From the NCBI GenBank assembly GCA_016935515.1, contig JAFGQT010000082.1, forward strand, positions 1-62,969: 62,969 nt of DNA, given 5' to 3'. Origin of the DNA: Bacilli bacterium (GTDB lineage Bacteria; Bacillota_I; Bacilli_A; Izemoplasmatales; Hujiaoplasmataceae). The position numbers and the translations under genes are program-made. Shown here piece after piece: positions 13,179 to 55,599 of the stretch. Below the pieces are notes generated by a model. The model worked only from the letters and a program-made list of their open reading frames with translations, was not told the DNA's origin and made no database searches. Within the stretch, counting starts at the first letter, position 1. Every line of letters starts with the position of its first letter.

Positions 13179-13197
13179 CGCGAAGGGAGTGTTTTAA

Positions 13198-35554: not shown

Positions 35555-35564
35555 TAATGAATCG

Positions 35565-35589
35565 ACCAGACAGTAGTCTGGTTTTTTTG
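35565..35589 (+). terminator. rho-independent terminator
   Basis: accagac-agta-gtctggt is followed by T7. Confidence 0.8.
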
Positions 35590-35667
35590 TGCTATATCAC
35601 AAAATGTGGTGGATTAATCAGCAGTATATATGGTATTATATAGACGAATAATCAAAGGGGGAGTAAT

Positions 35668-36735: not shown

Positions 36736-36885
36736 ATGGTAAAAAATAACAGGTATTTGCCTTAATATGTGCTTTTGCACAAAACAACGCTTTCATTTTT
36801 GGTTTTGTTCACATTGTTTTCCCTCTTAGGGATTGTTATACTAAAAATGGCGTTTTATACAACATAAAACTAAGGAGGAAACAAA

Positions 36886-38229: not shown

Positions 38230-38242
38230 GTTATCTATTTGG

Positions 38243-38279
38243 AGCAGGGTCGAAGATAAACTTCGGCCCTGCTTTTCTT
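38243..38279 (+). terminator. hairpin with U-tract between the SBP and permease genes (partial terminator/attenuator)
   Basis: agcagggtcgaag pairs with cttcggccctgct (one G-U) and is followed by tttct. Confidence 0.6.
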
Positions 38280-38296
38280 AAAACAGGAGGGAATAT

Positions 38297-39235
38297 ATGG
38301 AAGGAAAAGCGCTAGCTAATAACAACGGTAGCAACTACAAGGAAATGCTCCGACGAGTATTCAACAAGAAAACAGCGCCCTTTTGGCTTCTGGCACCGAC
38401 GTTCATCTACTATCTGGTGTTCTGGTTTTCTCCAATCTTTATCAGCATCAAGGAAGTATTCACAACATTAGACGGAAAATTCACAGTGCTAGGCAACTTC
38501 TTGTTCTTGTTCGAGCAAGAAACATTCCTGCCAGCACTGCTAAATACAGCATTCTTTGCCGTAGCTTCAGTAATGCTTCAATTTGTCATCGCTTTGGTAT
38601 TGGCAATCTTGTTGAATCGCAAATTCAAAGGACAGAAACTAATCCTCTTTCTTGTAATGATTCCCATGGCGATTACTCCTACCGCGGTAGCAATCGTCTG
38701 GAAAACTGGTTTGATTAGCAGTGGTTGGATCAACTCAATACTCCAATCCTTTAGTGTGCTTGAGGAGAGAATCCCATTTCTTGGCTTGAGAGGTATCGAA
38801 GCCGTCATCATGATTATCTTGATTGATACTTGGACGGTAATGCCTTCAGTTCTAATCATCTTGATTGCCGGGCTTGGAAACATCAATGAAGAGACCAAAG
38901 AAGCAGCATATATATTTGGAGCCAGCAAATGGCGTATAATAAAGGATATAACAATACCATTATTGAAACCATCCATTATCACTGCGGTTATTTTGCGTAT
39001 GATTGCGGCAGTTCAAGTGTGGGCAGTTGTTGTCATGGTAATGGGATTCACTAATGTACCTTTCTTAGTTGAAAGGATTGCCTATTACGTAGGACCTGTT
39101 TCCAGCCTCCCATATGCCGATAAACTAGCGTATACTTACTCATTCCTGACCGCAGTTATCGTATTCATCGCGACAATCGTCTATTTCAAGATCAGCAAGA
39201 AGGGAACAGCTCTTGATCGGAGGACGCAGAAATGA
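38297..39235 (+). CDS. carbohydrate ABC transporter permease
   Basis: It is a polytopic protein with EAA loop EAAYIFGASKWRIIKDITIP. Confidence 0.85.
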   Translation: MEGKALANNNGSNYKEMLRRVFNKKTAPFWLLAPTFIYYLVFWFSPIFISIKEVFTTLDGKFTVLGNFLFLFEQETFLPALLNTAFFAVASVMLQFVIALVLAILLNRKFKGQKLILFLVMIPMAITPTAVAIVWKTGLISSGWINSILQSFSVLEERIPFLGLRGIEAVIMIILIDTWTVMPSVLIILIAGLGNINEETKEAAYIFGASKWRIIKDITIPLLKPSIITAVILRMIAAVQVWAVVVMVMGFTNVPFLVERIAYYVGPVSSLPYADKLAYTYSFLTAVIVFIATIVYFKISKKGTALDRRTQK

Positions 39236-40278
39236 ATAAACTGAACGGAATTCAAAAAACTCTGATTGCTTTAGTACTGGCAACCGTTGTCATAGCGGTA
39301 ATCGTCCCCTTAATGTTTTTCTTCACCAATGCCTTCTCAAATGGAAGAGAAGTATATGATTATCCTAAGACGCCAATTTTATCGTTTACGGTCAAGGTTC
39401 AGGTGTCATACAATGAAGATACTGGGATGTATATAGTCAAATACTACGATCGCAATGGTGAGTTACAGAATGCAGTAAACACAAGTTTTGGAGAGATTCT
39501 CTCAGGCTATTTCGAGCAGTATCTGTCAGTATACCGAACTCCTGAGGAACTGCTTGAGCAGTTTGAGATAACCAAGACAGAAGGCCCTCAAGAGTTTACA
39601 TACGGTAAAAACATGTGGCATAACTTCAAGACATTCTTCTTGATTACCAGCAAAGCTGAGGAAGCATTAGTCAATAGTATCATCGTCGTGATTTTTACAA
39701 TCATCATATCCCTTACTCTAGGAAGTATGGCTGGGTATGCTTTTGCTAGGTTCAGATTCAAGGGTAAGGACCAAATCAACGTGTTCATGCTGATAGTCAG
39801 GATGTTTCCGATGGTCGGCATCAGCATACCGCTGGCGGTGATTTTGATCAGGTTTAACCTCTTCGATACGATGATAGGTCTGGCAATCCTCTATTCACTA
39901 CCAAATATAGCATTGACTTCATGGATAACTAGCTCGATATTTGTCGGTATCAATCGGGAACTCGAGGAAGCATCACTTGTATTTGGAGCTAATGGTTTCC
40001 AAACCTTCATCAAGATTACATTGCCGTTGGCATTGCCGGCTCTAGCCGCAAGTTCAATGTACGCTTTCCTAACCGCTTGGAATGATACAATCTCTGCTTT
40101 GATTCTGACTAACGATCATCCGACATTGGCTCTGGCAGTTTATCAGGCAATCGGCGACAATACGACAAATCTTCAATACGCTGCAGCTGGAAGCATAATC
40201 TTGATTATCCCCGCGCTCATCTTCACATTCGTGATTCGGAAATACGTGAATCAAATGTGGGGCGGAGTGTCTGTCTAA
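39232..40278 (+). CDS. carbohydrate ABC transporter permease with a large extracytoplasmic loop
   Basis: ATGA overlap with the upstream gene. The EAA loop is EEASLVFGANGFQTFIKITLP. A soluble insert of about 100 aa follows TM1. Confidence 0.85.
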   Translation: MNKLNGIQKTLIALVLATVVIAVIVPLMFFFTNAFSNGREVYDYPKTPILSFTVKVQVSYNEDTGMYIVKYYDRNGELQNAVNTSFGEILSGYFEQYLSVYRTPEELLEQFEITKTEGPQEFTYGKNMWHNFKTFFLITSKAEEALVNSIIVVIFTIIISLTLGSMAGYAFARFRFKGKDQINVFMLIVRMFPMVGISIPLAVILIRFNLFDTMIGLAILYSLPNIALTSWITSSIFVGINRELEEASLVFGANGFQTFIKITLPLALPALAASSMYAFLTAWNDTISALILTNDHPTLALAVYQAIGDNTTNLQYAAAGSIILIIPALIFTFVIRKYVNQMWGGVSV

Positions 40279-40288
40279 GGAGGACATA

Positions 40289-41395
40289 ATGGCATTTCTA
40301 GAACTCGTTGATCTTGACAAAAGGTATACACAAAAAGGCAACTTGATTGTCAAACATATGAATCTGTCCATTCACAAAGGGGAATTTCTCGTTTTTCTTG
40401 GGCCATCTGGGTGTGGAAAAACAACGACGATCCGGATGATCTCAGGACTTGAGGAGATATCTGGAGGCGACATACTAATTAACGGAAAATCAGTTGTATC
40501 GCTACCGCCAAAAGATCGTGGGGTATCGATGATATTCCAAAGTTACGCCGTTTGGCCACATATGACAGTAAGGGAAAATATTGCCTATCCATTGAGACTG
40601 CAGAAGGTTTCGAAGAAAGATATTGTCACAAGAGTGGAAAAAGCTGCCGCAGCTGCCAACATCATGGAATTGCTCGATCGATATCCAACGCAGTTGTCCG
40701 GTGGTCAACGCCAAAGGGTTGCAGTGGCCCGAGCTATCGTCGTCGAGCCTCAGATATTTCTGATGGATGAGCCGCTCTCGAATCTTGACGCGATGTTGCG
40801 TGTTTCGATGCGTTCTGAACTGAAAAACATTCATGAGTCTTTGGGGGCAACCTCGATTTTCGTTACTCATGACCAATCAGAAGCGATGAGTTTGGCCGAT
40901 CGTATTGTCATCATGAAGGACGGCCTGATCGAACAGATTGGGACGCCTAAAGATGTATATTTTGACTGCGAAAGCATTTTTGTCGCTTCGTTCATCGGAG
41001 TACCTCCGACCAATTTTTTCCATGTTTCTGTTCTCAAGGACGATGCAGGCCTGCTGCTTAAGAGTCAAGATGTAAGTTATCGCGTTGATGCCTTGGAAGA
41101 GAAGATGCTCTCCCCATATGTGGGCAAAGAAGTAGTCATGGGTGTCAGGCCGGAAAACCTTGAGATTTCTGACACTTTTGACGACAACACTTTCCTCACT
41201 ACACATGCAGATTTCATTGAACCACAAGGTTCTCATATTATCGTCATCAGCAAGCTTGAATCATCTGTTATCAAGATTTCATCCTCGAAATTAGAACTGC
41301 AGGCCAAGAGCCTGATACATGTCAGCGTAAAAGACAGAAAAGCAATGTTTTTTGACAAAGACACAGAAAAGAGAATCCGTCTGCAGGAGGAATAA
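40289..41395 (+). CDS. ABC transporter ATP-binding protein, MsmK/MalK type
   Basis: GPSGCGKTT, LSGGQRQR and FLMDEPLS motifs are present. Confidence 0.9.
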   Translation: MAFLELVDLDKRYTQKGNLIVKHMNLSIHKGEFLVFLGPSGCGKTTTIRMISGLEEISGGDILINGKSVVSLPPKDRGVSMIFQSYAVWPHMTVRENIAYPLRLQKVSKKDIVTRVEKAAAAANIMELLDRYPTQLSGGQRQRVAVARAIVVEPQIFLMDEPLSNLDAMLRVSMRSELKNIHESLGATSIFVTHDQSEAMSLADRIVIMKDGLIEQIGTPKDVYFDCESIFVASFIGVPPTNFFHVSVLKDDAGLLLKSQDVSYRVDALEEKMLSPYVGKEVVMGVRPENLEISDTFDDNTFLTTHADFIEPQGSHIIVISKLESSVIKISSSKLELQAKSLIHVSVKDRKAMFFDKDTEKRIRLQEE

Positions 41396-43057
41396 ATGGC
41401 AATCATCGATAGACTTAAAATCTTATACCCTAATGAATACCGAAGTGTAGCAAATAACCTCAAACGACTGATAGCTGACTGGCAACCCAAAATAAGAGCG
41501 CGCTATAGAGATATATCCGAAAAAGATGTCTGTCTGATAACCTATGGTGATGCAATCTATTCTGACGACGAGAAACCTTTGGCAACGCTAACGGAGTTTA
41601 TGAAAGACCATTTGTCGGGATTGATAAATGTTGTTCACATCCTTCCAATGTATCCATATACCTCTGACGATGGATTTTCTGTGGTTGATTTTCGAAAGAT
41701 TGATCCGGAGCTTGGTGATTGGACAAATATCAAGCAACTCAATGAAGAATTCGATTTGATGTTTGATGCCGTCATCAATCACGTTTCCGTTAGCAGTGAA
41801 TATTTTCGTGGATTCATGAATTCAAGTTCAAAATACAAAGGCTTCTTTTTGGAAGTCGATCCTGCAGTTGACCTCTCAACGGTTGTCAGGCCAAGGACTT
41901 CAAGCTTGATTACTGAGTATGAAGGAAAATCGGGAAAGAAATATGTATGGACAACTTTCAGCGCTGATCAGGTCGATCTCAATTATCATGAGCCAAGAGT
42001 TTTGCTGGAAGTTCTTGATGTTTTGTTGTTCTATGTTTATCATGGAGCTAGATTCATTAGATTTGACGCGGTAGGCTTCATTTGGAAGAAGCTTGGTACT
42101 ACTTGCATGCATCTTAATGAAACACATGAGATTGTGAAGTTGATGCGCGAGGTAATAGATTCAATCAGCTCCGGAGTTAAGATTATCACCGAGACTAACG
42201 TTAAACACCATGAAAACATATCATATTTTGGTAACGGCAGCGACGAGGCTTCACTAGTATACCAATTTCCGCTGCCCCCACTAGTATTGCATGCCTATTT
42301 GCGCCAAGATGCAAGCAGGCTCTTAAGTTGGTTGGAGCAGCTTCCAGAAACTTCGGAAACGACGACGTTTTTCAATTTTCTGGCTTCGCACGATGGAATC
42401 GGTCTGAGACCACTTGAAGGTCTGTTGGCAGACTCGGAAATCAAATTTACAGTTGACACAGTTGTGAGTCGCGGTGCCAGAATCAACTACCGGTCGCTTG
42501 CCAACGGCGAAAAGATACCTTATGAATGTTGCATAACTTACGTTGATGCTTTGTCAGAGCGCGATGCAACGGACTCAATTAGAGCGGCGAGACTATTAGG
42601 AGCTCATCTAATCCTGTTGTCGCTCCAAGGATTGCCTGCAGTGTACTATCATAGTCTTTTAGGTTCGCGAAATGACTATTTAGGAGCTGACGTAAGCGGG
42701 GTGAACAGACGCATCAACCGTGAAAAACTAGAATACAAAAAACTAGTCAAAGAATTGAATCTGATTGACGATTTGCGAGACTTGGTTTTCTCCGGAATGA
42801 AGAAAATGATTCAGACCCGTACTGGAAATCACCTTTTTCACCCCTCAATCAAGCAAAGGCCCTTGTTCAAAGAAAAAAGTATCTTTTGTCTTGAAAGATA
42901 TGATGCAAACGATTCGGTTTATGCTTGTGTAAACTTGTCAAATCAGCCTGTTGAGATCGATCTTGAATCCAGAACGCGCTCATTGTTGACAGGAGAAATC
43001 ATGGAAGAAAGATTCATCCTCGAACCATTTGGATACGGATGGTATCAGAAGCACTAG
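41396..43057 (+). CDS. GH13 subfamily-18 (sucrose phosphorylase family) glycoside phosphorylase; glucosylglycerate phosphorylase is plausible from context
   Basis: FDAVINHVS, RFDAVGFIWK, ITETNV and FLASHDGIGL conserved regions are present. The gene starts 1 nt after the ATPase stop and is followed by glycerate kinase. Confidence 0.7.
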   Translation: MAIIDRLKILYPNEYRSVANNLKRLIADWQPKIRARYRDISEKDVCLITYGDAIYSDDEKPLATLTEFMKDHLSGLINVVHILPMYPYTSDDGFSVVDFRKIDPELGDWTNIKQLNEEFDLMFDAVINHVSVSSEYFRGFMNSSSKYKGFFLEVDPAVDLSTVVRPRTSSLITEYEGKSGKKYVWTTFSADQVDLNYHEPRVLLEVLDVLLFYVYHGARFIRFDAVGFIWKKLGTTCMHLNETHEIVKLMREVIDSISSGVKIITETNVKHHENISYFGNGSDEASLVYQFPLPPLVLHAYLRQDASRLLSWLEQLPETSETTTFFNFLASHDGIGLRPLEGLLADSEIKFTVDTVVSRGARINYRSLANGEKIPYECCITYVDALSERDATDSIRAARLLGAHLILLSLQGLPAVYYHSLLGSRNDYLGADVSGVNRRINREKLEYKKLVKELNLIDDLRDLVFSGMKKMIQTRTGNHLFHPSIKQRPLFKEKSIFCLERYDANDSVYACVNLSNQPVEIDLESRTRSLLTGEIMEERFILEPFGYGWYQKH

Positions 43058-43073
43058 AATGGACAGTGATAAT

Positions 43074-44216
43074 ATGAAGTTTGTAATTGCGCCAGATTCA
43101 TTCAAGGAAAGCATGGATGCTTTAACGGCAGCCCAATCAATTCAAAGTGGTCTAAAAGACGTGTTTCCCGAGGCACACTTTTGTTTGTTTCCTATGGCTG
43201 ATGGTGGCGAAGGCACTTTGCAGGCAGTCAAATATTATGCCAAAGATGCTCAAAGCTTGGAAGCCACAGTCAGAGGGCCCTTGGGATCGCATGTCAGTGC
43301 CAGTCTGATTTGGATTCCTTCCAAAGCAGAAGTGTTCATCGAAATGGCTGAAGCAGCTGGCATAATGTTACTTGAAAAAGAACAAAGGAATCCGCTATAC
43401 ACTTCGACATATGGCGTTGGTGAACTGTTTGAATTTGCCTTGTCCAAACATCCCAAACGCATTGTGATTGCACTTGGCGGAAGCGTTACTAATGATGGCG
43501 GAATGGGATTTCTCCAAGCTCTTGGGGTGGTTTTCAACGATCAGCTCGGACAGGAATTGCCTGCTGGGGGAAGGTATCTTGGAGAAGTTGATGCCATCAA
43601 CAACTCGAAGCGATTGGGAAAATTCAAGAATGTTCAGATCATTGTTTTGACAGACGTCAAGAACAGACTTTTGGGGACAAATGGAGCTACATTGACCTAT
43701 GGTCCGCAAAAAGGAGCTGACACCATCATGCTTGATGTGCTGGAAGAAGGAATGAAAAAATACGCAACTGTGATGGAAAATCATTTCGGCAAGATTGTCC
43801 GAAATGCCATAGGCTCTGGAGCTGCAGGCGGTCTAGGATTTGCACTTCAATTTTTGCCGAATGTCGACCTTGTATCTGGGTTCGACTATGTTGCAGAATT
43901 GTCGAACATTGAAGAAATGATTGCGGATTGCGATGTTGTTTTTATTGGCGAAGGTTCTCTGGACAGACAATCCTTGCAAGGAAAAGTACCGATCGGTATT
44001 GCAAATCTTGCCAAAAAATATCATAAACCCGTCGTCGCTCTGGTAGGGACCTTGAAATGTAATTTGGATGAACTGTCTCCATACGGCATTGACATGGTGT
44101 ACCCAATCAATGAAGCAAATGAAAATTTGCCCAACTTATTGAAAGCTGGTCCAAAAAATTTGGCTGCTACAGCGAAAAAAGTTGGTCTTTCTCTTAAGGA
44201 AAGGGGTCTTCTATGA
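43074..44216 (+). CDS. glxK: glycerate kinase (GlxK/GarK class)
   Basis: MKFVIAPDSFKESM...MADGGEGT...GGSVTNDGGMGFLQALG motifs are present. An alternative start lies at 43059; the track start is a TTG at 43029. Confidence 0.85.
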   Translation: MKFVIAPDSFKESMDALTAAQSIQSGLKDVFPEAHFCLFPMADGGEGTLQAVKYYAKDAQSLEATVRGPLGSHVSASLIWIPSKAEVFIEMAEAAGIMLLEKEQRNPLYTSTYGVGELFEFALSKHPKRIVIALGGSVTNDGGMGFLQALGVVFNDQLGQELPAGGRYLGEVDAINNSKRLGKFKNVQIIVLTDVKNRLLGTNGATLTYGPQKGADTIMLDVLEEGMKKYATVMENHFGKIVRNAIGSGAAGGLGFALQFLPNVDLVSGFDYVAELSNIEEMIADCDVVFIGEGSLDRQSLQGKVPIGIANLAKKYHKPVVALVGTLKCNLDELSPYGIDMVYPINEANENLPNLLKAGPKNLAATAKKVGLSLKERGLL

Positions 44217-45547
44217 AGATTGCGTTGATCCATTTTCGTGTAGGTGAAACTGATGGTGTCTCGTTGGAGATGGACAAGTGGCGCAAGGTTCTTGCGAATT
44301 TGGGGCATGAACCTTTTTTCATCGCTGGTAAGCAACACGGTGTAGACACATTCACAATTCCCGAACTTGCATTTGATAATCGCGAGGATCTTGAACTGAA
44401 TGAGGCTTGCTTTGTAAGACTAGGGAGATTCACAGAAGAATCCCTCAAATCAAGATTGGAAGCAGTAGCAAATAGTATCGAGAAGCAATTGACTGAACTG
44501 ATCAAAGAAAAAAGTCTCGATATGCTTATTGTAAATAACATGTTTTCTCTGGCAAGAAGTTTGCCTGTAGCGATTGGCATCCAAAATTCGATTATAAAGA
44601 CCGGTGTCAAGGCTGTTGGTCATCATCATGATTTTTACTGGGAACGTGAGCGATACTCGTCACCAACCTGCGCTTTTGTTCGCCAGTGCCTGGAAGATTT
44701 TTTTCCTCCCTTTTCGAATATGTTGCATGTGGTGATCAACAGCCTGGCACAGACCGATCTAAAATTTAGAAAGGGCTTGACATCGACAATCGTACCAAAT
44801 GTCTTCGATTTTGATCAGGATCCTTGGACTCAGGATGACTACAACATTGATTTGCGGCAAGCATATGGCCTTGATGAAAATGCAGTTATTTTTCTTCAGG
44901 CAACCAGAGTTGTCAATCGCAAAGGCATTGAATTGGCAGTGCAGACCTTGGCAGAAATGAACAAGAGTAAATCGCGCTATTTTGGGAAAAAGATGTATAA
45001 CGGCGTAGTGTTTGATGATCAAAAACATTTTGTGCTGCTTTGTGTCGGTCTTCACGAGGGTACAGACGGATATGAAAGCAAACTTGAAGGTCTTGCGGCC
45101 AAGCTTGATGTCGAGATAATTCTCGATCCAACAAAAATCGCCCATACCAGGAGCAATTCAGTGCCAAAAAGATATTCACTCTGGGATGCTTACGTTATTG
45201 CGGATGTAGTTTCTTACCCAAGTCTTTATGAGGGATTTGGGAACCAGTTTCTTGAGGCGGTTTTCGCTAAGAAGCCAATATTGCTATATGAATATTCTGT
45301 TTTTGAGGCTGACATAAAAGCAAAAGGGTTCGCCTATGCCTCGCTCGGTGCTAAGCATTCGCTTCGAGCCAATGGGCTGGCGCAGGTTACTGAGGAGTCA
45401 ATTGTGTCTGCGTCAAATGTTCTGGAAGGATATTTATTCGATCCGATTTTCAGGAACGAAGCGGTAGAAAATAATTTTGAACTAGGTAAGAAGCATTATT
45501 CGATGGAAGCATTAAAAAATCTGCTTAAGGAGATAGTCAATAACTGA
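44213..45547 (+). CDS. GT4-family (GT-B) glycosyltransferase-fold protein
   Basis: ATGA overlap with glxK. The C-terminus has the E-x7-E motif SYPSLYEGFGNQFLEA. The length is 444 aa. Confidence 0.65.
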   Translation: MKIALIHFRVGETDGVSLEMDKWRKVLANLGHEPFFIAGKQHGVDTFTIPELAFDNREDLELNEACFVRLGRFTEESLKSRLEAVANSIEKQLTELIKEKSLDMLIVNNMFSLARSLPVAIGIQNSIIKTGVKAVGHHHDFYWERERYSSPTCAFVRQCLEDFFPPFSNMLHVVINSLAQTDLKFRKGLTSTIVPNVFDFDQDPWTQDDYNIDLRQAYGLDENAVIFLQATRVVNRKGIELAVQTLAEMNKSKSRYFGKKMYNGVVFDDQKHFVLLCVGLHEGTDGYESKLEGLAAKLDVEIILDPTKIAHTRSNSVPKRYSLWDAYVIADVVSYPSLYEGFGNQFLEAVFAKKPILLYEYSVFEADIKAKGFAYASLGAKHSLRANGLAQVTEESIVSASNVLEGYLFDPIFRNEAVENNFELGKKHYSMEALKNLLKEIVNN

Positions 45548-45554
45548 TACGGTC

Positions 45555-46865
45555 ATGAAGATAACATTTTTAGGTGCAGGTAGCACCGTATTCGCCAAGA
45601 ACGTTCTTGGCGATTGCATCATCAATCCACAATTGAAGAATATGACGATTTCATTGTATGATATCGATCATGAACGACTTGATGATTCATTCAGAATGCT
45701 GACCAACCTGAATCGAACGATGGGTGGGAATGCCACGATCGTCAAGGAAGTAAATCGGAAGAAAGCACTTCAGGATGCAAATTACATCGTTAATGCAATT
45801 CAGGTCGGAGGCTATGATCCGGCAACGATTCTGGATTTCGAGATACCTAAAAAGTATGGGTTTCGCCAGACTATCGGTGACACGATGAGCATTGGCGGCA
45901 TTTTTCGTGCTTTGCGAACAATACCGGTTTTAGAAGAGTTTGCTTCCGATATCGAAGAGGTGTGCCCAGACGCTCTATTCATCAACTATGTTAATCCGAT
46001 GTCCATTTTGACAGGGTACATGCAAAGATACACCAAAGTCAATACCGTAGGACTCTGTCATAGCGTTCAGATCTGTGTTCCTAGGCTGCTGAAGATGTAC
46101 GGACTAGAAGCATATACGGACAAATGCCGTTATCAGATTGCCGGAATCAACCATATGGCATGGCTACTGTCCTTGGAAGGCACAGACGGATTTTTGTTGT
46201 ACGACGAGATCAAGCGGCGAAATTTGGAAAACGACGGTAGGTATAACGATCGTAAAGATTTGGTCAGACTCGAGATAATGCGTCGTTTTGGTTACTACGT
46301 GACTGAAAGTTCAGAACATAATGCGGAATACATGCCATACTTCATCAAGCAAAATTATCCGGAATTCATTGAAAAATACAACATTCCCCTTGACGAGTAC
46401 CCTCGTAGGTGTGTGAACCAAATCAATGAATGGAAGCACACGCGAGAACAACTTACAAATAATCCTGAACTTAGGCACGAGAAATCTTATGAATATGCAT
46501 CATCAATAATCGAGGCTATGGAAACCGACAAACCATTCAAGATGAACGGGAATGTCCTCAACAAAGGATTAATAACAAATCTACCGGAAGACGCCTGTGT
46601 CGAAGTTCTTTGTTTGGTAGACAGAGCCGGGATTCATCCGACATATGTGGGACAGCTACCTACAGCCCTTGCGGCCTTGAATATGACGAATGTGAATGTG
46701 CAATTGATGACTATAGAAGCAGCTAGAACAAGAAAAAGGTCCGATGTGTATAAAGCTGCCTATCTTGATCCAAGGCTTTCTGCGGAACTTTCAATGGACG
46801 AGATCAAGAGCATGTGTGATGAGCTGTTTGAAGCTGAAAAAGAATGGCTAGGAAAGTATAATTAG
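45555..46865 (+). CDS. GH4-family NAD+/Mn2+-dependent alpha-glucosidase/alpha-galactosidase
   Basis: MKITFLGAGSTVF (Rossmann fold) and VGLCHSV (catalytic Cys-His region) motifs are present. The length is 436 aa. Confidence 0.8.
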   Translation: MKITFLGAGSTVFAKNVLGDCIINPQLKNMTISLYDIDHERLDDSFRMLTNLNRTMGGNATIVKEVNRKKALQDANYIVNAIQVGGYDPATILDFEIPKKYGFRQTIGDTMSIGGIFRALRTIPVLEEFASDIEEVCPDALFINYVNPMSILTGYMQRYTKVNTVGLCHSVQICVPRLLKMYGLEAYTDKCRYQIAGINHMAWLLSLEGTDGFLLYDEIKRRNLENDGRYNDRKDLVRLEIMRRFGYYVTESSEHNAEYMPYFIKQNYPEFIEKYNIPLDEYPRRCVNQINEWKHTREQLTNNPELRHEKSYEYASSIIEAMETDKPFKMNGNVLNKGLITNLPEDACVEVLCLVDRAGIHPTYVGQLPTALAALNMTNVNVQLMTIEAARTRKRSDVYKAAYLDPRLSAELSMDEIKSMCDELFEAEKEWLGKYN

Positions 46866-46872
46866 GAGGCAA

Positions 46873-47940
46873 ATGATGTCTAGAAGCTTGATAGCGACAA
46901 AGCCTAGGGTTGCAGAAATACTCGAGGTTGAACTAAGAAAAATCAATCCTGACGAAGTTCTGATCCGTGTGGATTACGCTTCACCTAAACATGGAACTGA
47001 AATGACTGATTTTCGAGGAAAGAGCCCGTGGGATAAACATCGATTCGATGAGAAATCGAGATTGTTTGTACCACGTGAATCTCAGGAAAGCGGCATCGCT
47101 TTTGGCTCCTGGAATGTAGGGAACATGGTCGTTGGCCATATCATAAATGTGGGATCTGACGTCAAGTCGTATGCAGTAGGCGAGAGGGTAGCCACCTATG
47201 GCGGTATTTCAGAGTACATAATTGCCAAAGGGGTTGACAATCACCGGCTGAGAAAAATGAAGGAAACAGACATCTGGCAAAACGCTGTTTGTTATGATCC
47301 GATGCAGTATGCCTTATCCGGAATTCGCGACGCTCATGTCAGACCTGGCGATGAAGTAGTCATCTTTGGACTTGGAGCGATCGGACTGTTGGCAGTAGCC
47401 ATTGCAAAAAACATTGGCGCAAAAGTCTATGCGGTAGATCCGTTGGAAAACCGCAGAAATATAGCGCTATCCTATGGTGCGGATCATGCTTTGGATCCAA
47501 TTGGTAACGATATAGGAAGCATCATTAAATCAAGCAGCCACAATCAAGGAGCTGACAGCGCAATAGAGACGAGCGGCAATCCGCACGCACTGCAACAAGC
47601 ACTTCGCAGTCTTGCATACGGGGGGATCGTCGCGTATGTTGCCTTTCCAAAAGAGTTCACGGGCGGACTTGACTTTGGTAAGGAATCGCACTTCAACAAT
47701 CTCTCAATTGTATTTTCCCGAGCTTCAAATGAACCCAATCGTGATTATCCGCGTTGGAATCGAAAACGAATTGAAGACACTTGTTGGGAAATGTTGATGT
47801 TGAACCAAGTAAATTGTGAGAAAATGATCACTCCAGTGGTATCGTTTGAGGAATCTGCTGAAGCATATATGAAATATGTAGATCAAGAGCCTGAATTATC
47901 CGTCAAACTTGGGATAGACTTCACAGGTGACCAAAGATGA
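46873..47940 (+). CDS. medium-chain dehydrogenase/reductase (MDR, alcohol dehydrogenase-like) family protein
   Basis: It has a GroES-like N-terminal domain and a Rossmann motif VVIFGLGAIGLLAV. The usual GHE zinc motif reads GTE here, so zinc dependence is uncertain. An alternative ATG at 46876 has better RBS spacing. Confidence 0.7.
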   Translation: MMSRSLIATKPRVAEILEVELRKINPDEVLIRVDYASPKHGTEMTDFRGKSPWDKHRFDEKSRLFVPRESQESGIAFGSWNVGNMVVGHIINVGSDVKSYAVGERVATYGGISEYIIAKGVDNHRLRKMKETDIWQNAVCYDPMQYALSGIRDAHVRPGDEVVIFGLGAIGLLAVAIAKNIGAKVYAVDPLENRRNIALSYGADHALDPIGNDIGSIIKSSSHNQGADSAIETSGNPHALQQALRSLAYGGIVAYVAFPKEFTGGLDFGKESHFNNLSIVFSRASNEPNRDYPRWNRKRIEDTCWEMLMLNQVNCEKMITPVVSFEESAEAYMKYVDQEPELSVKLGIDFTGDQR

Positions 47941-48743
47941 AATTATTGACGCATGACAAGCCTTTTTTTCCCAATGAATGGGAAAAAAAATTCATCTATT
48001 TGCGTGACATGGGCTTTGATGGATTTGAGATTGACGGTGGAGTTCTGCTTAAAGAGTTTGATAGAATCAAAAAGGCATCTGAAGTACATAACTTCCCTGT
48101 TCGGATGATTTGCGGTGGTTATAATGGCTGGATTGGGGATTTTGACCCTGACAGGCGTAAACAGGGAATTTCCGACATCAATCAGATTTTGAAAGCGGGA
48201 TATGCATTGAACGTACAAGGTATAGTCCTCCCGGCGGCCTGGGGGATGTTTTCTAAACGTTTACCTCCGATGATTCCCCCGAGAACACAGGAAGAGGACA
48301 CTGAGGTCCTTTTGGATTCCCTTGCCAAGCTTAATGCTATTGCCAAAGAAACAAATACCACGATTTACCTTGAACCACTAAATCGCTATGAAGACTATAT
48401 GTTGAATCACATCTATGAAGCTGCCGCCTTGATTGAACTCGGCAGTTTCGATTCCGTCAAGATTTGTTATGATTTCTTTCATATGAATATTGAAGAGTCG
48501 AAGATGGATGATCCGATACTTGAGTTTCATCAACATATAGGTCATGTCCATTTAGCCAGCAGTCATCGTTATCAACCTGGTAGCGGTCATCTTGATTACC
48601 AACCCGGGTTCAGAGCATTGAGAGAAATCGACTATGACGGCGATTTCGCCTTCGAGTGTCGAGTTCTAGGTGATGACCCCGAAGTTGCATACCGTAAATC
48701 GGTTGATTTTGTTCGCAACGAACTAAAGAAGGCAGGTTATTGA
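47937..48743 (+). CDS. sugar phosphate isomerase/epimerase (xylose isomerase-like TIM barrel) family protein
   Basis: ATGA overlap with the upstream gene. Metal-ligand-like motifs YLEPLNRYE...DFFHMNIEE...GHVHLAS are present. The length is 268 aa. Confidence 0.7.
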   Translation: MKLLTHDKPFFPNEWEKKFIYLRDMGFDGFEIDGGVLLKEFDRIKKASEVHNFPVRMICGGYNGWIGDFDPDRRKQGISDINQILKAGYALNVQGIVLPAAWGMFSKRLPPMIPPRTQEEDTEVLLDSLAKLNAIAKETNTTIYLEPLNRYEDYMLNHIYEAAALIELGSFDSVKICYDFFHMNIEESKMDDPILEFHQHIGHVHLASSHRYQPGSGHLDYQPGFRALREIDYDGDFAFECRVLGDDPEVAYRKSVDFVRNELKKAGY

Positions 48744-48745
48744 AG

Positions 48746-49777
48746 ATGTTGAAAGTGGCAATCATCGGTGCAGGGAACATTGCGAGGACGATTCATTTGC
48801 CAGCATATATAAGTGATCCTGATGTGACAGTAGTCGGCATAGCTGATGTAAACGAACAGACACTTAAAGCGACTGCCGACCAGTTCAATGTCGCAAATCG
48901 GTACACGAATTATCGGGACATGATTACAGAGTTATCACCTGATTTGGTCAGCGTCTGTTCACCGAATAAGTATCATTTCGAACAAGTCATGTTTGCTCTT
49001 GAGAAAAAAGCACACGTATTTTGCGAAAAACCACCGGCAATAAACTATCGTGAAGCAAAGACCATGCACGAATTGTCCCGTCAAAACGGACTTCTATTGG
49101 GCTTCAACTTTCATCACCGATATCGCGAAGAAACCAAAATCATCAAGGACTGGATCGACAGTAGAGGCACCGACAAAATCTATTTCTGTGAACTAGAAGC
49201 ACTACGAAGACGCGGTATACCTGGATGGGGTCAGTTTACGAACAAAGAAGTACAGGGTGGGGGTCCATTGATTGATTTTGGCATCCACCTGTTGGATTTG
49301 GCATTATTTTTGCTTGATTTCCCAGAGCCCGCCTACTGTCTGGCAATGGATTACGATTTGATAGGCAAGATTGGAGGAGAGGGCGATTTTGGTAAATGGG
49401 ACGGCGGATCCAAATTTCAGGTCGAAGATTCTCTTTTTGGTCAGGTTACATTCAAGTCTGGCTTTAGCATACAGATCAAGACTGCGTTTGCGATCAACAT
49501 GGCAGAAAAATCACGCATGGATTTAAGATTTCACGCCGGCGATGAATCAATTTCACTTAGCCCCTTGAGTGTATTCAATCAAGATGGTTTGATTAGGCAA
49601 AGTTTAATCGAGCCAAATCGGAATCTTTCTGCGTTGCCTTCCTTTCTTGACTATATTAAGGGGAATAGTGACGTTAAGCCAGTATTGTCTGATTCAGTAT
49701 TGTTGACGCAAAAAGTCATCGATTGTCTTTATTTGTCAGCTTCTACCAAGAAGCCCGTGAAAGTTGAACTAGATTGA
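48746..49777 (+). CDS. Gfo/Idh/MocA-family NAD(P)-dependent oxidoreductase
   Basis: MLKVAIIGAGNIA is the Rossmann N-terminus and EKP (FCEKPPA) is the family motif. An alternative TTG start lies at 48740. Confidence 0.8.
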   Translation: MLKVAIIGAGNIARTIHLPAYISDPDVTVVGIADVNEQTLKATADQFNVANRYTNYRDMITELSPDLVSVCSPNKYHFEQVMFALEKKAHVFCEKPPAINYREAKTMHELSRQNGLLLGFNFHHRYREETKIIKDWIDSRGTDKIYFCELEALRRRGIPGWGQFTNKEVQGGGPLIDFGIHLLDLALFLLDFPEPAYCLAMDYDLIGKIGGEGDFGKWDGGSKFQVEDSLFGQVTFKSGFSIQIKTAFAINMAEKSRMDLRFHAGDESISLSPLSVFNQDGLIRQSLIEPNRNLSALPSFLDYIKGNSDVKPVLSDSVLLTQKVIDCLYLSASTKKPVKVELD

Positions 49778-49778
49778 C

Positions 49779-51980
49779 ATGAATCACTTTTTTGTAGACG
49801 ATTTCGAGAAAGCTTTTTCGCTTGATTACGATTATGCGATTCAGAACAATAAGGAGAGCATACTGACAATCGGCAATGGCCGTTATGGACTTAGAGGAAC
49901 ATTTGAAGAGAAACTCCCGTATGAGAATCGGGGTTTTTTCCGTTCAGGCTTCTATCTTTGTCAAGAAGGAAAATCAGAAGACCTCTTGTGCTTGCCTGAT
50001 ATTTCAGAGATTAGACTTGTTTTGAATGGCGAATTCTTCCATATTTCACGAGGAAATTTTAAGAAACACGAAAGATTTATTGATTTGGATTCACACGAAC
50101 TTATACGAAGGTGTATCTGGATTTCACCAACAGGAAAAAGCTATGATATCACGTTCAAGCGGTTCTTCTCATTCGCTAATCCAGATTTGTTCTACCAAGA
50201 AGTAGTTGTAGGTTCAGATACAGAAGATGTAGAAATCCTGATTGAAACTGGTGTCAACGGAGGCGGTTCAGGTTCTAAAAAAAGTGACGTTTTCACTTTT
50301 GAATCTAGAGTGATTGACAAGAGCATAATGCAAGTTCATGTTGCATATGGCCTTCCCGATTCCCAATCATTGACGTTCACACAAGGACTGAAGCTTGATA
50401 ATCGCTGGTTGAGCGGTGATTTCAACGTAAAGAACAGTGCACTTGTTGGCTCATATCGTAGTTTCGCCAGAAAAGCATCAAGATTAAGCGTGACGAAAGT
50501 TACATTGATAAGCGACAACTCGTTGTCAATTCAGGAAGCGCACGGGCAATTTTCTAGGTGTGAGGAATATGCAGGACATATTCAGAAACATCAGGATAGT
50601 CTGCACAGAAATGTCAGACTACCACTTGAGCTTCTGAACAGGGATGCAGATATCAATCAGAAAATCAAGGCATCATTGCACCATATCTGGATATTGACTC
50701 CTTATCATGATGAAATGTCTATAGGTGCCAAAGGGCTAAGTGGAGAGGGCTATAATGGACATGTCTTTTGGGATACTGAGATCTTCATGTTTCCTTATTA
50801 TCTCTTTACTGACCCGTTTATAGCAAAAAAACTTCTGCTCTACCGCTATAATCGACTCGATCAAAGTAGAAGTAACGCAAAATCCAGGGGTTACCAAGGA
50901 GCGATGGTGGCTTGGGAATCTGCGTTGTCAGGCATTGATCAAACACCAGAGTTTTCTGCGATCAATATTCACACTGGGAAACGGACTTTGGTACATTCTG
51001 GGAAAAAGGAACTACACGTGACAGTGGATGTCATGTTCGCGATCATCATGTATTATTTGGCGACCGAAGATGATGAGTTCATGCAAAAATACGGAGTTGA
51101 GATGCTTGAAGAATATACCCGTTTTTGGTTGTCAAAATGTAAAATGACCAATCGAGGGCTGGAAATTTTGGATGTTATTGGCCCGGACGAATACACTGAG
51201 CATATCAACAACAATTTCTATACCAATTTCATGGTCAAAAAAGCCCTGAAAATGGCTGCTATACATTTTCGTGATCAAATATTGGCTGAAGAAGCTTTGA
51301 AAGCTTCAGAATTAATTTATTTGCCAGTAATTGAGCGATCAGTTATTCCTCAAGACGATACGTTCCTGCATAAAAAAGAAATCGATATTTACGCATATCG
51401 AGAAAATGCCGGAAGCCAAGACATACTCAAAGACTTTTCGCGTGAGCAAGTAAACGAGCTTCAGGTCCTGAAACAAGCCGATTCAATTTTATTGTTTGAG
51501 TTGTTTCCTGATGATTTTCCTGATGAAGTTGTGTCTGCGACATATCATTACTATGAAAAACGAACGATCCATGACTCCTCTTTGTCAAAATCAACCCATG
51601 CTATCGTCGGATTTGACATTAAAGATCAAGAACTTGCGACAAAATACTTCCGAGAGTCTTTGGATGTCGATTTTTCCGATTATTCTCATTCCTCAACAGG
51701 CATACATGCCGCTTCGATGTTTCGACCGTTTTTGATCCTTTTCCGAGGTGTTCTTGGTATTAGGATAATGGCAGATGGTATTTTGAAAATCGATCCAAAG
51801 CGACAATTTTTGGTTCCAGAGTTCCATTTGACTTTCCAGTATAGAAAAAGGTTGATTAAAGTGACTTACGATGACAATGTTAGTCTTACACTGATTAGTG
51901 GGGAGAATATTACAGTTCTATTTGGCGGCGAAAAGCGCAACTTGACTCTGAGTAGCCCAACTGTCCTGATGTTAAAATGA
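49779..51980 (+). CDS. GH65-family glycoside hydrolase/phosphorylase (maltose/kojibiose phosphorylase-like)
   Basis: GEGYNGHVFWDTEIFMFPYY and the catalytic-acid region QGAMVAWESA are present, and the length is 733 aa. Confidence 0.8.
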   Translation: MNHFFVDDFEKAFSLDYDYAIQNNKESILTIGNGRYGLRGTFEEKLPYENRGFFRSGFYLCQEGKSEDLLCLPDISEIRLVLNGEFFHISRGNFKKHERFIDLDSHELIRRCIWISPTGKSYDITFKRFFSFANPDLFYQEVVVGSDTEDVEILIETGVNGGGSGSKKSDVFTFESRVIDKSIMQVHVAYGLPDSQSLTFTQGLKLDNRWLSGDFNVKNSALVGSYRSFARKASRLSVTKVTLISDNSLSIQEAHGQFSRCEEYAGHIQKHQDSLHRNVRLPLELLNRDADINQKIKASLHHIWILTPYHDEMSIGAKGLSGEGYNGHVFWDTEIFMFPYYLFTDPFIAKKLLLYRYNRLDQSRSNAKSRGYQGAMVAWESALSGIDQTPEFSAINIHTGKRTLVHSGKKELHVTVDVMFAIIMYYLATEDDEFMQKYGVEMLEEYTRFWLSKCKMTNRGLEILDVIGPDEYTEHINNNFYTNFMVKKALKMAAIHFRDQILAEEALKASELIYLPVIERSVIPQDDTFLHKKEIDIYAYRENAGSQDILKDFSREQVNELQVLKQADSILLFELFPDDFPDEVVSATYHYYEKRTIHDSSLSKSTHAIVGFDIKDQELATKYFRESLDVDFSDYSHSSTGIHAASMFRPFLILFRGVLGIRIMADGILKIDPKRQFLVPEFHLTFQYRKRLIKVTYDDNVSLTLISGENITVLFGGEKRNLTLSSPTVLMLK

Positions 51981-51992: not shown

Positions 51993-52026
51993 AAAGCCCA
52001 AGGAGAGTAAGTTCCTCGGGCTTTTT
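51993..52026 (+). terminator. rho-independent terminator closing the glycoside operon
   Basis: aaagcccaagga pairs with tcctcgggcttt (one mismatch) and is followed by TTT. Confidence 0.7.
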
Positions 52027-52187
52027 CCTAGTTTAAAGTATGGTGCTTTTCAGATTTAACGATATTTGGCATGCCCTTTGGTATAAAAATTGTAAGCATT
52101 AATATGGAAATACAAGGCTAGATTAATGTATAATGATATATGAAAGTCAATATTTGACACCCATTTATTACCTAAAGGACGGTTCAT

Positions 52188-52722: not shown

Positions 52723-55599
52723 ATGAAGAAGTATTTGCCAAGCATTACGACAGGTTTTGTCCTGCTTGTTTTGACAGGGCTCACGATCTGGCAGAGCTTC
52801 GAGGCTGATTTGCATTCATCGGTAGTCCATATCTATTACATTACAGTTATTTTCATCGCATTTTGGATGCGCAAATGGCTTCTCTGGGCGACAGGATACA
52901 TCGTCTTGATGCATATGGCTTTGGATGCGATCACAACTCAAAGTTTCCCCTTGTTTGCTTTCGGTGAATCAGTTCTTTTGATTATGCTTGCACTCTTTCT
53001 GCATTATACTTTCGTAAACCAGGAAAAAAGCGAAACCATCGCCAAGCTATTCAAACAGGTAGCTGACGACTCGATATTTGCGCAAATCATCACCGACACT
53101 GATGGCAAGATTGTCTATGTCAATCCATATTTTGCGGGATTGAACCGAGTTGAGCCGGAAAAGATGATTGGTCAGGATCTAGCTTCTTTGATTGAAGTTA
53201 CCCATGACACGAAATTCAAGGACATGATTGAATCACTGAGACAGACTGGATTTTTCACTGAAACCGAATTGTGTTTGAGCGATAACGGTAAGGAATTACC
53301 GATGCTGGCAAGCGGAGTCGTCATCAATGATACAGAGAACAAACCAGAATTTTACGCGATATGTGCGATAGACATAACAGATCAAAAGCAGTTATCTAAC
53401 GACCTGAAGAAAAACAAGGATCGACTTGAGAGCATCATTGAAGCAACAAGAATCGGAACTTGGGAGTGGGACATCGAATCGGGCAAGACAATATTCGATG
53501 ACCGATGGGCGGACATGGCAGGCTACACCTTGGAAGAACTATCGCCAACCACTATTGATACATGGAACAACCTGCTCCATCCTGATGACAAAGAAATCGT
53601 CGAAACTTCTTTGGCGAGAATTTTTGCCCAGAAGGAAGAGTACTACAATGTCATAGTAAGGATGAAACACAAAAATGGCAATTTCATCTGGGTCCATGAC
53701 CGTGGGAAGGTCATCAAATGGTCGGACACAGAGAAACCGTTGTTGATGATGGGGACGCATACTGATGTTACCGAGGCGAAGCTAGCTGAAGAACAGATCA
53801 AATACAGCCATCGTCTTATGCAATATGTCATTGAAAATGCCAATGCGGCAATTGCGATTCATGACAAGGATCTAAAATACTTATATGTGAGCCAGAATTA
53901 TTTACGCCAGTATGACGTTAAAGAAAAAAATATCATCGGTAAACATCACTACGATGTTTTCCCTGACCTGCCTCAGAAATGGCGGGACGTCCATCAACGA
54001 ACGCTCAAGGGGGAAACCGTTAGGGGAGACAAAGATATTTTTGTCCGTAGCGACGGCAAGGAGTTTTGGACTCGCTGGGAATCGAGACCATGGTATGAAC
54101 TTGATGGTTCAATTGGTGGCCTCATAATCTACACCGAAGTAATCAATGAGCGTCTTGAAACGGAAAAACGGCTTCAGGAATCGCAAGATATGTTGCTTCG
54201 AGTTATGGACAATTTGCCTATTGGCATCGCCCTGGCAAAGTTGGATCCCGAATATACATTCACTTATATGAACGAAAACTTTCCAGTTTTTTACGGTGCA
54301 CCAAGAAAAGACTTGGAAAAACCTGGGTTTTTCTGGAATGCGGTTTTTGAAGATCCAAAATACAGGGAAGCGGTGAGGAAAACTTTTGAACAGGATGTTA
54401 ACTCCAGTGCTGCTTCCAGTAAACATTGGAAACGGATCCCAATCGCAAGAAAAGGCAAAAAGACTAGATATGTCGATGCTGTGGTAACCTCGATGATGAA
54501 CGGTGAATATTTCATATCAATGGTCAACGACGTGACTGAACAAGTAGAAAAACAAACCGAAATCGAACGTATCAGCATGCATGATTCGTTGACCGGATTG
54601 TTCAACCGCAACGTTTTCACGTCACGGCTAACTGAATTGGACGAAGTCATGAACTATCCACTCAGCATCATGATGATCGACATCAACGGACTCAAGCTGA
54701 TCAACGATGCCTTCGGTTTTCAAAAAGGTGATCAGGCAATCAAAATGATTGCAGAAGCAATCAAGAAAGTGTTGGAGAACAAGAATTCTGTGATTGCAAG
54801 ACTTGGCGGAGGAGAATTTGGGGCCATTCTTTCTGGTACAAATTTTGAAGAAGCTCAGAAAGTAAAAGATGCAATAATTGCCAGTATCACAAAACTGAAA
54901 CTTTCTAACATGGAGCTTGGCGTCGTGATTGGAGTGGCAACCAAGTTAAACGACGAAATCTCAATCCAAGAACTACTTAAGAACGCTGAAGACGACATGC
55001 TCAAGCGCAAGATATTGGTTGGTCGTGGCATCCGCAACAGTGCCATCACGAGCATCTTCAAAACGTTGACTGAAAAATACGAAGAAGAGAAACTCCATTC
55101 TCAACGTGTCAGCATTTTCTGCCGTCAGATCGGCGAAGCAATGCAGCTCAGTCGTGATGATGTCAAAGAGCTTGAACTCGCAGGATTGTTCCATGACATC
55201 GGTAAAATATCGCTTCGTGATGATGTCTTAAAAAAACCAGGAAAACTAACTGATGAAGAATACGCTGAAGTAAAGAAGCATGCGGAGATAGGCTATCAGA
55301 TTCTTCGCGCAGCAGACAAATATTCCGGTCTGGCCGAACATGCCTTGTGTCACCATGAGAGATGGGACGGAAAAGGTTATCCAAATGGGCTCAAGGGCGA
55401 AGAGATTCCTTTCTTTTCGCGGATTATTTGCGTAGCAGACGCATTTGAAGCAATGACTTCAGACCGACCCTACAGAAAAGCCAATAAACTCGAATTTGCA
55501 GCTGAGGAATTGAAGCGTTGTGCCGGCACTCAGTTTGATGCAACGATCGTTGATGTTTTTGTCAACAAAGTATTGAAATTACCGCCAAAACTCGATTGA
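52723..55599 (+). CDS. membrane-anchored multi-PAS / GGDEF (degenerate, GGGEF) / HD-GYP c-di-GMP signalling protein
   Basis: RBS gaggagg lies upstream. The N-terminus has about 4 TM helices, followed by about four PAS-like segments (for example GTWEWDIESGKTIFDDRWADMAGY). The GGDEF domain has RLGGGEFG at 54805-54819. The HD-GYP domain has LFHDIGK and HHERWDGKGYPNGL. Confidence 0.85.
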   Translation: MKKYLPSITTGFVLLVLTGLTIWQSFEADLHSSVVHIYYITVIFIAFWMRKWLLWATGYIVLMHMALDAITTQSFPLFAFGESVLLIMLALFLHYTFVNQEKSETIAKLFKQVADDSIFAQIITDTDGKIVYVNPYFAGLNRVEPEKMIGQDLASLIEVTHDTKFKDMIESLRQTGFFTETELCLSDNGKELPMLASGVVINDTENKPEFYAICAIDITDQKQLSNDLKKNKDRLESIIEATRIGTWEWDIESGKTIFDDRWADMAGYTLEELSPTTIDTWNNLLHPDDKEIVETSLARIFAQKEEYYNVIVRMKHKNGNFIWVHDRGKVIKWSDTEKPLLMMGTHTDVTEAKLAEEQIKYSHRLMQYVIENANAAIAIHDKDLKYLYVSQNYLRQYDVKEKNIIGKHHYDVFPDLPQKWRDVHQRTLKGETVRGDKDIFVRSDGKEFWTRWESRPWYELDGSIGGLIIYTEVINERLETEKRLQESQDMLLRVMDNLPIGIALAKLDPEYTFTYMNENFPVFYGAPRKDLEKPGFFWNAVFEDPKYREAVRKTFEQDVNSSAASSKHWKRIPIARKGKKTRYVDAVVTSMMNGEYFISMVNDVTEQVEKQTEIERISMHDSLTGLFNRNVFTSRLTELDEVMNYPLSIMMIDINGLKLINDAFGFQKGDQAIKMIAEAIKKVLENKNSVIARLGGGEFGAILSGTNFEEAQKVKDAIIASITKLKLSNMELGVVIGVATKLNDEISIQELLKNAEDDMLKRKILVGRGIRNSAITSIFKTLTEKYEEEKLHSQRVSIFCRQIGEAMQLSRDDVKELELAGLFHDIGKISLRDDVLKKPGKLTDEEYAEVKKHAEIGYQILRAADKYSGLAEHALCHHERWDGKGYPNGLKGEEIPFFSRIICVADAFEAMTSDRPYRKANKLEFAAEELKRCAGTQFDATIVDVFVNKVLKLPPKLD

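Follow-up and report, generated by a model that had tools for sequence, protein, structure and literature searches.

A ycjQRST-type module adjoining a GH4 glycosidase gene in a probable osmolyte-dismantling locus of an uncultured Bacilli bacterium

We analysed a 62,969-nt stretch of DNA (the window), contig JAFGQT010000082.1 of an uncultured Bacilli bacterium, whose assembly (GCA_016935515.1) is a metagenome-assembled genome (MAG) of 1.4 Mb and 78% completeness. Coordinates are those of the whole window, and all genes of the locus described here lie on the + strand. Five open reading frames (ORFs) were found at 45555-51980, encoding, in this order, a GH4 glycosidase, a medium-chain dehydrogenase/reductase (MDR), a xylose-isomerase-like TIM barrel protein, a Gfo/Idh/MocA oxidoreductase and a GH65 phosphorylase. 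An initial annotation had described them as five coupled genes, and the ORFs, their families and their spacing were confirmed: the gaps are +7 nt between GH4 and MDR, −4 nt between MDR and TIM barrel, −4 nt between TIM barrel and Gfo and +1 nt between Gfo and GH65, and a GT4 gene lies upstream of the GH4 gene at +7 nt.

What that annotation had overlooked is the kinship of the module to the biochemically characterised ycjQRST genes of E. coli. The MDR gene (46873-47940, Pfam ADH_zinc_N) encodes an orthologue of YcjQ, named D-guloside 3-dehydrogenase in RefSeq, with 55% identity over 349 of 355 aa in a BLASTP search against E. coli K-12 (E 3e-134). Conversely, YcjQ retrieved this protein from the window's genome with 377 bits, the next match scoring 55 bits. 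In the YcjQ-type MDR proteins (that of the window and E. coli YcjQ, L001 6964-8016), GNMVVG replaces the GHE motif of zinc-dependent MDRs, and PKHGTE stands where those enzymes have a Cys ligand. Pfam ADH_N reaches only 19.8 bits on the window protein. The database label "zinc-binding alcohol dehydrogenase" is doubtful for the YcjQ family.

The TIM barrel gene (47937-48743, Pfam AP_endonuc_2) corresponds to YcjR, the 3-dehydro-D-guloside 4-epimerase of RefSeq, with 45% identity. Its best match in the PDB is 6WN6, a "3-keto-D-glucoside 4-epimerase", with 253 bits against 101 bits for the next one, and the remaining significant matches fall among ketose 3-epimerases and TIM barrels that are of isomerase type or uncharacterised. 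No C-deglycosidase of the DgpC/CarB type and no lyase appeared among its PDB matches at E ≤ 10. The tetrad E146/D179/H205/E240 is conserved; we take the roles of these residues to be those of the ketose-3-epimerase family and those reported for the enzyme by Mabanglo et al. in 2020. Given the YcjR orthology, the protein is predicted to be an epimerase rather than a lyase, and its earlier casting as part of a lyase or C-deglycosidase system did not hold.

The third gene of this trio (48740-49777, Pfam GFO_IDH_MocA) encodes a YcjS orthologue (D-glucoside 3-dehydrogenase in RefSeq) that shares 36% identity over 347 aa with the E. coli protein and keeps the motifs EKP (position 96) and GGGPLID...GIH. 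YcjS in turn finds it as best match in the window's genome, with 240 bits against 96 for the next. Among solved structures its closest relatives are the glucoside 3-dehydrogenases DgpA (166 and 159 bits), but it is nearer to YcjS (E 3e-87) than to DgpA (E 2e-47). The BLASTP scores of the trio against YcjQ, YcjR and YcjS are 377, 246 and 257 bits, the Q-R-S gene order is present with 4-nt overlaps between the three genes, and YcjM, Q, R, S and T are all reciprocal best hits in the window's genome with wide margins. Thus, of the proposal that the genes form a 3-keto-glycoside module, the part concerning the two dehydrogenases stands, as YcjQ and YcjS orthologues, whereas the beta-elimination or lyase step is replaced by a YcjR-type epimerase.

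The GH4 gene (45555-46865) encodes an NAD+- and metal-dependent glycosidase of the MelA (alpha-galactosidase) type. Pfam Glyco_hydro_4 and Glyco_hydro_4C are both present (E about 1e-61), the NCBIfam alpha-galactosidase model PRK15076 is matched with 605 bits for a cut-off of 486, and a full-length alignment with E. coli MelA gives 46% identity (E 2e-136). The following motifs are intact: GAGS (7), NYVNP (144), GLCH (166), INHM (198) and ESSEH (251). Both the N-terminal GxGS NAD site and the Cys/His metal-site motifs are kept, in agreement with the NAD dependence earlier proposed for it.

The GH65 gene (49779-51980) encodes a protein with N-terminal, central and C-terminal GH65 domains, placed in the YcjT/kojibiose-phosphorylase clade of inverting alpha-glucoside phosphorylases (YcjT is the kojibiose phosphorylase of RefSeq; 34% identity). 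Its top PDB match is 3WIQ, CsKP, with 285 bits. Compared with the catalytic and phosphate-site residues listed for CsKP (PMC11442529), the catalytic acid is kept as E471 (E483 in CsKP), and the phosphate site is kept in full as K318, Y325, S600, S601 and H643 (K330, Y337, S631, S632 and H675); a hydrolase-type catalytic base is absent. The positions typical of kojibiose phosphorylases read D68-E380-A382-P390, with a D-E-A-P-H-S motif against the reference EEAPxx (specificity motifs from PMC8537180), and the +1 subsite is W379/E380/S407 against W391/E392/T417 in the reference; S at position 417 also occurs in E. coli YcjT, and D at position 64 also in Listeria. Because the catalytic acid, the phosphate site and the kojibiose-type positions are kept, the enzyme is assigned as a phosphorylase, as had been proposed, and not as a hydrolase. 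A hydrolase assignment was considered and discarded: the kojibiose-hydrolase model matches partially, with 184 bits against 800, and the phosphate-site residues are all present. Residues 392-405 contain a two-residue insertion in specificity loop 3 (AINI-x-TG), common to YcjT and the Firmicute ycj-type GH65 proteins; the insertion is absent from the Caldicellulosiruptor kojibiose phosphorylase, and in ycj-type GH65 proteins it is often basic (H, K or R).

The genome's sole homologue of YcjU, a beta-phosphoglucomutase of 216 aa with 42% identity, is encoded on another contig, C46. It belongs there to a second alpha-glucoside locus, which spans 5421-13853 on the − strand and also contains genes for a substrate-binding protein (SBP), two permeases and two GH65 paralogues of 788 and 726 aa; the +1 site reads W-E in the 726-aa paralogue and I-A in the 788-aa one.

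The five genes are most likely the tail of a predicted 12-gene operon that runs from an SBP gene at 36886 through the GH65 gene, with intergenic gaps from −29 to +67 nt. Just after the GH65 stop codon, an intrinsic-terminator-like hairpin followed by U5 (51993-52029, + strand, 12 bp, dG −16 kcal/mol, z = −2.99 against shuffled sequences) probably marks the 3' end of the operon. Another terminator-like hairpin, at 35564-35583, lies 3' of a GDSL gene upstream of the operon. A promoter scan gave sites no more numerous than in shuffled sequence, and its result was not used. The conserved unit is larger than the operon: it is a locus of 15 genes (33324-51980) in the order GH63, GDSL, CdaR, SBP, two permeases, ATPase, GH13_18, glycerate kinase, GT4, GH4, Q, R, S and GH65, and begins upstream of the operon at the GH63 gene. 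The tight spacing of the five genes is borne out, but the bounds drawn around them were too narrow, and, as described below, GH65 is missing from two of the six loci compared. A cupin gene at 52188, downstream of the locus, is not conserved among the related loci.

The first of the upstream genes (33324-34949) encodes a GH63/MGH1-like (alpha/alpha)6 glycoside hydrolase (Pfam MGH1-like_GH 3e-25, Trehalase and GH63), with the fold of mannosylglycerate and glucosylglycerate hydrolases; its NCBIfam matches are weak only, for example 35 bits to glucosylglycerate hydrolase. It overlaps by 4 nt with a gene for a GDSL-type esterase/acylhydrolase (34946-35554, Pfam Lipase_GDSL_2) and is followed by a CdaR/PucR-type regulator gene (35668-36735, Pfam Diacid_rec 3e-39 and HTH_30), from a family that senses sugar diacids or glycerate. 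The GH63-like gene is syntenic in the related loci L097, L099 and L103, the GDSL gene in L097, L099, L103 and L104, and the CdaR-type gene occupies the same position in the latter four.

Four genes at 36886-41395 encode a CUT1-type ABC importer by Pfam: an SBP (36886-38229), two permeases (38297-39235 and 39232-40278) and a MalK-type ATPase (40289-41395). These proteins are 67-82% identical across the syntenic loci. In BLASTP searches against E. coli K-12 the SBP gave no match to YcjN and the permeases share only 24-33% identity with YcjO and YcjP; the ATPase is 50% identical to YcjV and ranks fourth, not first, among the YcjV matches in the window's genome. The closest permeases from modules with GT4 and GH13_18 genes, from two Clostridia MAGs, are 50-52% identical to those of the window, and importers resembling it adjoin MggS-like GT4 and GH13_18 genes in Clostridia, Atribacterota, Halanaerobiales, Thermotogota and others.

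The following gene (41396-43057) encodes a GH13_18 phosphorylase orthologous to YcjM, the glucosylglycerate phosphorylase of RefSeq (43% identity over the full length, E 5e-163). The glycerate kinase gene (43029-44216, Pfam Gly_kinase 2e-122, TIGR00045 415 bits) opens, as listed, at a TTG codon at 43029 and so overlaps the GH13 gene by 29 nt; its real start is probably the ATG at 43074, since this gives the usual N-terminus MKFVIAPDSFK. The last gene before GH4 (44213-45547) encodes a protein of GT4 glycosyltransferase fold that is a relative of mannosylglucosylglycerate synthase (MggS), with 417 bits to the NCBIfam model NF041101, under its cut-off of 640. We examined the neighbourhoods of related GT4 genes in 80 loci (L004-L083, flanks of up to 10 kb) and found a GH13_18 gene within 10 kb in 38 of them, an association previously noted in Rhodopirellula baltica (PMC3736172). 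The loci come from Halanaerobiales, Atribacterota, Anaerolineae, Thermotogota, Planctomycetota and others, and often also carry ABC importer and glycerate kinase genes. As this context looks catabolic, the GT4 protein may serve degradation, acting as a phosphorylase or as a transferase in reverse. The whole operon gives the impression that a GT4/GH13_18/ABC/glycerate-kinase module was fused to a ycjQRS(T) module and GH4.

The locus recurs in five other uncultured lineages, all of them in assemblies retrieved through protein identity. Its flanks differ at either end, and protein identity per gene is 40-82%. All 15 genes are present in L085/L097 and in L087/L099, whereas L084, whose contig ends upstream, extends from SBP to GH65. 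L103 runs from GH63 to Gfo without GT4 and GH65, and L104 ("Tenericutes bacterium GWC2_34_14") from GDSL, which the 5' edge of the fetched sequence truncates, to Gfo; L104 has GT4 and lacks GH65. In L103 the 360-bp gap at the expected GT4 site (9638-10001) holds no detectable remnant, and GH65 is missing 3' of the trio at 14220-14394 in L103 and at 14197-14384 in L104. Across the window and these lineages, GT4 is thus retained in five of six loci and GH65 in four, but the GH4-MDR-TIM-Gfo order in all six, at 45-78% protein identity in the other five and with the GH4 gene always immediately 5' of the MDR gene. As L103 and L104 lack GH65, and L103 also GT4, GH4-QRS is the stable core of this variant and GH65 is not obligate in it.

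For comparison we took six canonical ycj clusters, from E. coli, Peribacillus, Listeria, Caldicoprobacter, Enterococcus and one metagenome. Their order is LacI, GH13_18, SBP, two permeases and Q-R-S-GH65, followed in some by glycerate kinase and beta-phosphoglucomutase. All six keep GH13_18 and Q-R-S-GH65, three add glycerate kinase, and GH4 or GT4 occurs in none. The variant is rare or patchy in distribution, as a YcjQ orthologue was found neither in the 40 nearest species representatives nor in 399 sampled genomes of the phylum; a metagenome scan with the MDR protein returned three loci, all of canonical type or too short to tell. A gene for a PAS-GGDEF-HD(-GYP) signalling protein lies downstream of the operon at 52723-55599, and a homologue with 43% identity is encoded at 16064-19135 in L103, a few genes downstream of the locus and on the opposite strand. 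This shared neighbour is a hint of kinship between these lineages and against a simple transfer of the locus as a cassette.

In E. coli, according to the summaries in PMC13053599 and PMC11543891 of the biochemistry of Mukherjee et al. (2018 and 2019) and Mabanglo et al. (2020), YcjQ, YcjR and YcjS respectively oxidise C3, epimerise C4 and reduce C3, and so turn D-gulosides into D-glucosides, a pathway that PMC13053599 credits to the 2019 and 2020 papers. Considering the orthology, the conserved catalytic residues, the operon architecture and the synteny observed here, the genes at 46873-51980 are probably a ycjQRST-type module that remodels a glycoside within a 15-gene locus for dismantling osmolytes. 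The YcjQ-like MDR protein would use NAD+ to oxidise an imported glycoside at the C3 hydroxyl of its non-reducing hexose; the YcjR-like TIM barrel protein, which would depend on a metal, would epimerise the adjacent C4 of the 3-keto-glycoside; and the YcjS-like Gfo protein would reduce C3 with the NADH just made, yielding an alpha-D-glucoside. The net result would be a redox-neutral double epimerisation (gulo- to gluco- in E. coli) without breakage of the glycosidic bond. Most likely, then, the trio remodels the sugar by epimerisation, with no beta-elimination, into a form open to cleavage by ordinary phosphorylases or glycosidases, and we assign bond cleavage to the GH65 and GH13_18 phosphorylases together with GH4. 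GH65 could remove the alpha-glucosyl cap by phosphorolysis of the kojibiose type, giving beta-Glc-1-P that the beta-phosphoglucomutase encoded elsewhere in the genome could use. Alternatively or additionally, the MelA-type GH4 enzyme may take off the cap by NAD-dependent hydrolysis. The YcjM-like GH13_18 enzyme would split the leftover glucosylglycerate into alpha-Glc-1-P and D-glycerate, and the glycerate kinase would phosphorylate the latter. In this scheme the substrates themselves, the way the flux runs and how GH4 and GH65 share the work are inferred.

Most likely the 15-gene locus is one unit that imports and dismantles 2-O-glycosyl-glycerate osmolytes and their capped derivatives, such as glucosylglycerate, mannosylglycerate and compounds like mannosylglucosylglycerate (MGG). 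We tentatively suggest, as one possibility, that the substrates of the module are glucosylglycerates bearing a hexose cap in alpha-1,2 linkage, in other words trisaccharide osmolytes of the MGG kind, which may be acylated. On such a substrate the trio would turn a non-glucose cap into alpha-glucose, removable by a kojibiose-type GH65 or, here, by GH4. The locus adds to the case for capped glucosylglycerates as substrates of ycj systems.

Several points weigh against the ycjQRST-type reading. D-gulosides are very rare in nature, and identities of 34-55% to the E. coli enzymes allow a shifted substrate or stereochemistry. The importer is not orthologous to YcjNOP, a CdaR-type regulator takes the place of the LacI-type YcjW, and the beta-phosphoglucomutase gene lies outside the operon. 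Since GH65 is missing from two of the six syntenic loci and GH4 always adjoins the trio, the trio's real partner here may be GH4, on a substrate differing from that of E. coli. Moreover, the E. coli enzymes have been characterised singly, and no natural substrate, inducer or transporter ligand is known for the ycj cluster itself (PMC11543891, PMC6599011): no ligand of YcjN was found (PMC11543891), and kojibiose is probably not the real inducer (PMC6599011).

The same fixed adjacency of GH4 and the trio, together with the absence of GH65 in two lineages, also speaks for an arrangement in which the trio acts on a free monosaccharide released by GH4 and not on the intact glycoside. Here GH4 would hydrolyse an alpha-galacto- or gulo-glycoside and the trio would convert the sugar to D-glucose through 3-keto sugars, a shunt independent of kinases. 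A chemical link to a MelA-type enzyme exists, as the 3-keto-guloside is identical to the 3-keto-galactoside. E. coli YcjQ reportedly also accepts free D-gulose, in a paper of 2019. The account in PMC13053599 states that YcjS oxidises free D-glucose besides the methyl glucoside, but also that YcjQ yields the gulo and not the galacto configuration. In all six canonical clusters, furthermore, the trio is coupled to a disaccharide phosphorylase with no glycosidase upstream. Homologues of GalK, GalE and GalM are already present in the genome, so that a Leloir-independent shunt from galactose to glucose, forced by missing gal genes, is unsupported. On balance, we consider action on the free sugar unlikely.

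An improbable alternative, the one put forward in the initial annotation, is non-hydrolytic cleavage of a glycoside or C-glycoside, in which the TIM barrel protein would act after C3 oxidation by beta-elimination or as a lyase, as in the DgpA/DgpBC system or the Bacteroides 3-keto-glycoside route. Those routes use the same pair of a Gfo protein and a xylose-isomerase-like TIM barrel, DgpA is the closest solved relative of the window's Gfo protein, and GH4 itself works by oxidation and elimination. Against this stand the closer relation of the Gfo protein to YcjS, the YcjR-type match of the TIM barrel and the lack of lyase matches given above, and no gene for a small DgpB-like subunit is present. 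The likeness to the Bacteroides 3-keto-glucoside pathway that had been drawn fails as well, the BT_2158/BT_2159 family models NF058561 and NF058563 (glycoside 3-dehydrogenases) reaching 41 and 24 bits for cut-offs of 750 and 650. Finally, a pair of dehydrogenases with opposite stereospecificity suits epimerisation and not elimination. For the TIM barrel itself, a lyase or C-deglycosidase role was rejected after the PDB searches and the NCBIfam scan.

Very improbable, and rejected on scores, is a Thermotoga-type inositol pathway acting on a cyclitol and unrelated to the surrounding glycosidases: the NCBIfam matches to IolM, IolO and IolG (81, 120 and 86 bits) and the PDB match of the TIM barrel to TM0416 (73 bits) recall it, but all three models score far under their equivalog cut-offs (450, 300 and 355) and well below the YcjQ/R/S matches, no member of the 15-gene locus falls in any other inositol-pathway family, and the constant partners of the trio are GH13_18, GH65 and GH4.

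If the substrates are capped glucosylglycerates, the locus may point to the natural substrates of the ycj pathway, and the fixed GH4-QRS arrangement would be an undescribed joining of two NAD-dependent 3-keto mechanisms on one substrate family. Within uncultured, small-genome Izemoplasma-like bacteria, the redox trio stands in one operon with a glucosylglycerate phosphorylase, a glycerate kinase and an MggS relative, alongside CdaR, and it can pair with a GH4 glycosidase instead of a GH65 phosphorylase. The candidate substrates of ycj systems are thereby narrowed to capped glycosyl-glycerate osmolytes, which can be synthesised and tested, and labels such as "zinc alcohol dehydrogenase", "sugar phosphate isomerase" or "oxidoreductase" on such genes can be replaced by specific names.

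The closest known system is the E. coli K-12 cluster ycjMNOPQRSTUV-ompG/ycjW (b1309-b1320). The window shares with it orthologues of YcjM, Q, R, S and T, the Q-R-S-T order, a MalK-type ATPase and an ABC importer in the operon, and its YcjR-like and GH65 proteins retain their catalytic residues. In contrast to E. coli and the other canonical clusters, a MelA-type GH4 gene stands directly upstream of Q in all six variant lineages, and GH65 is dispensable in two sister lineages. The window adds an MggS-like GT4, a glycerate kinase, a GH63-like hydrolase and a GDSL esterase, and differs in regulator and importer as noted above; its operon is also without a counterpart of YcjU. The Firmicute ycj clusters of Peribacillus frigoritolerans, Listeria booriae, Enterococcus avium and Caldicoprobacter algeriensis likewise share GH13_18, the ABC importer and Q-R-S-GH65, with YcjQ identities of 56-60% and often a glycerate kinase after GH65. 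They have a LacI regulator and beta-phosphoglucomutase, but are without GT4, GH4, GH63, GDSL and CdaR.

The pairing of an MggS-like GT4 gene with GH13_18 (also called "SPase") is seen both here and in the operon-like structures of mannosylglucosylglycerate producers (Petrotoga mobilis MggS; R. baltica mggS-mggB-spasE, PMC3736172), with a common link to alpha-1,2-capped glucosylglycerate. In the window, however, the pair is part of an operon for import and catabolism that also holds glycerate kinase and the redox trio, the window's GT4 protein stays under the MggS equivalog cut-off, and the R. baltica mggS cluster is without ycjQRS genes. With DgpA/DgpBC and the Bacteroides BT2156-2160-type systems the window shares the first type of step, NAD-dependent C3 oxidation of a glycoside by a Gfo/Idh/MocA protein. 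Its second enzyme, in contrast, is an epimerase-type TIM barrel of the YcjR kind and not a lyase or deglycosidase, and a second dehydrogenase would restore the alcohol. The kind of system is thus known from the E. coli ycj cluster. What is new is the fixed GH4, the optional GH65 and the added MggS-like GT4, GH63, GDSL and CdaR genes, and with them the physical fusion of ycjQRS(T) with a module of MggS-like GT4, GH13_18 and glycerate kinase.

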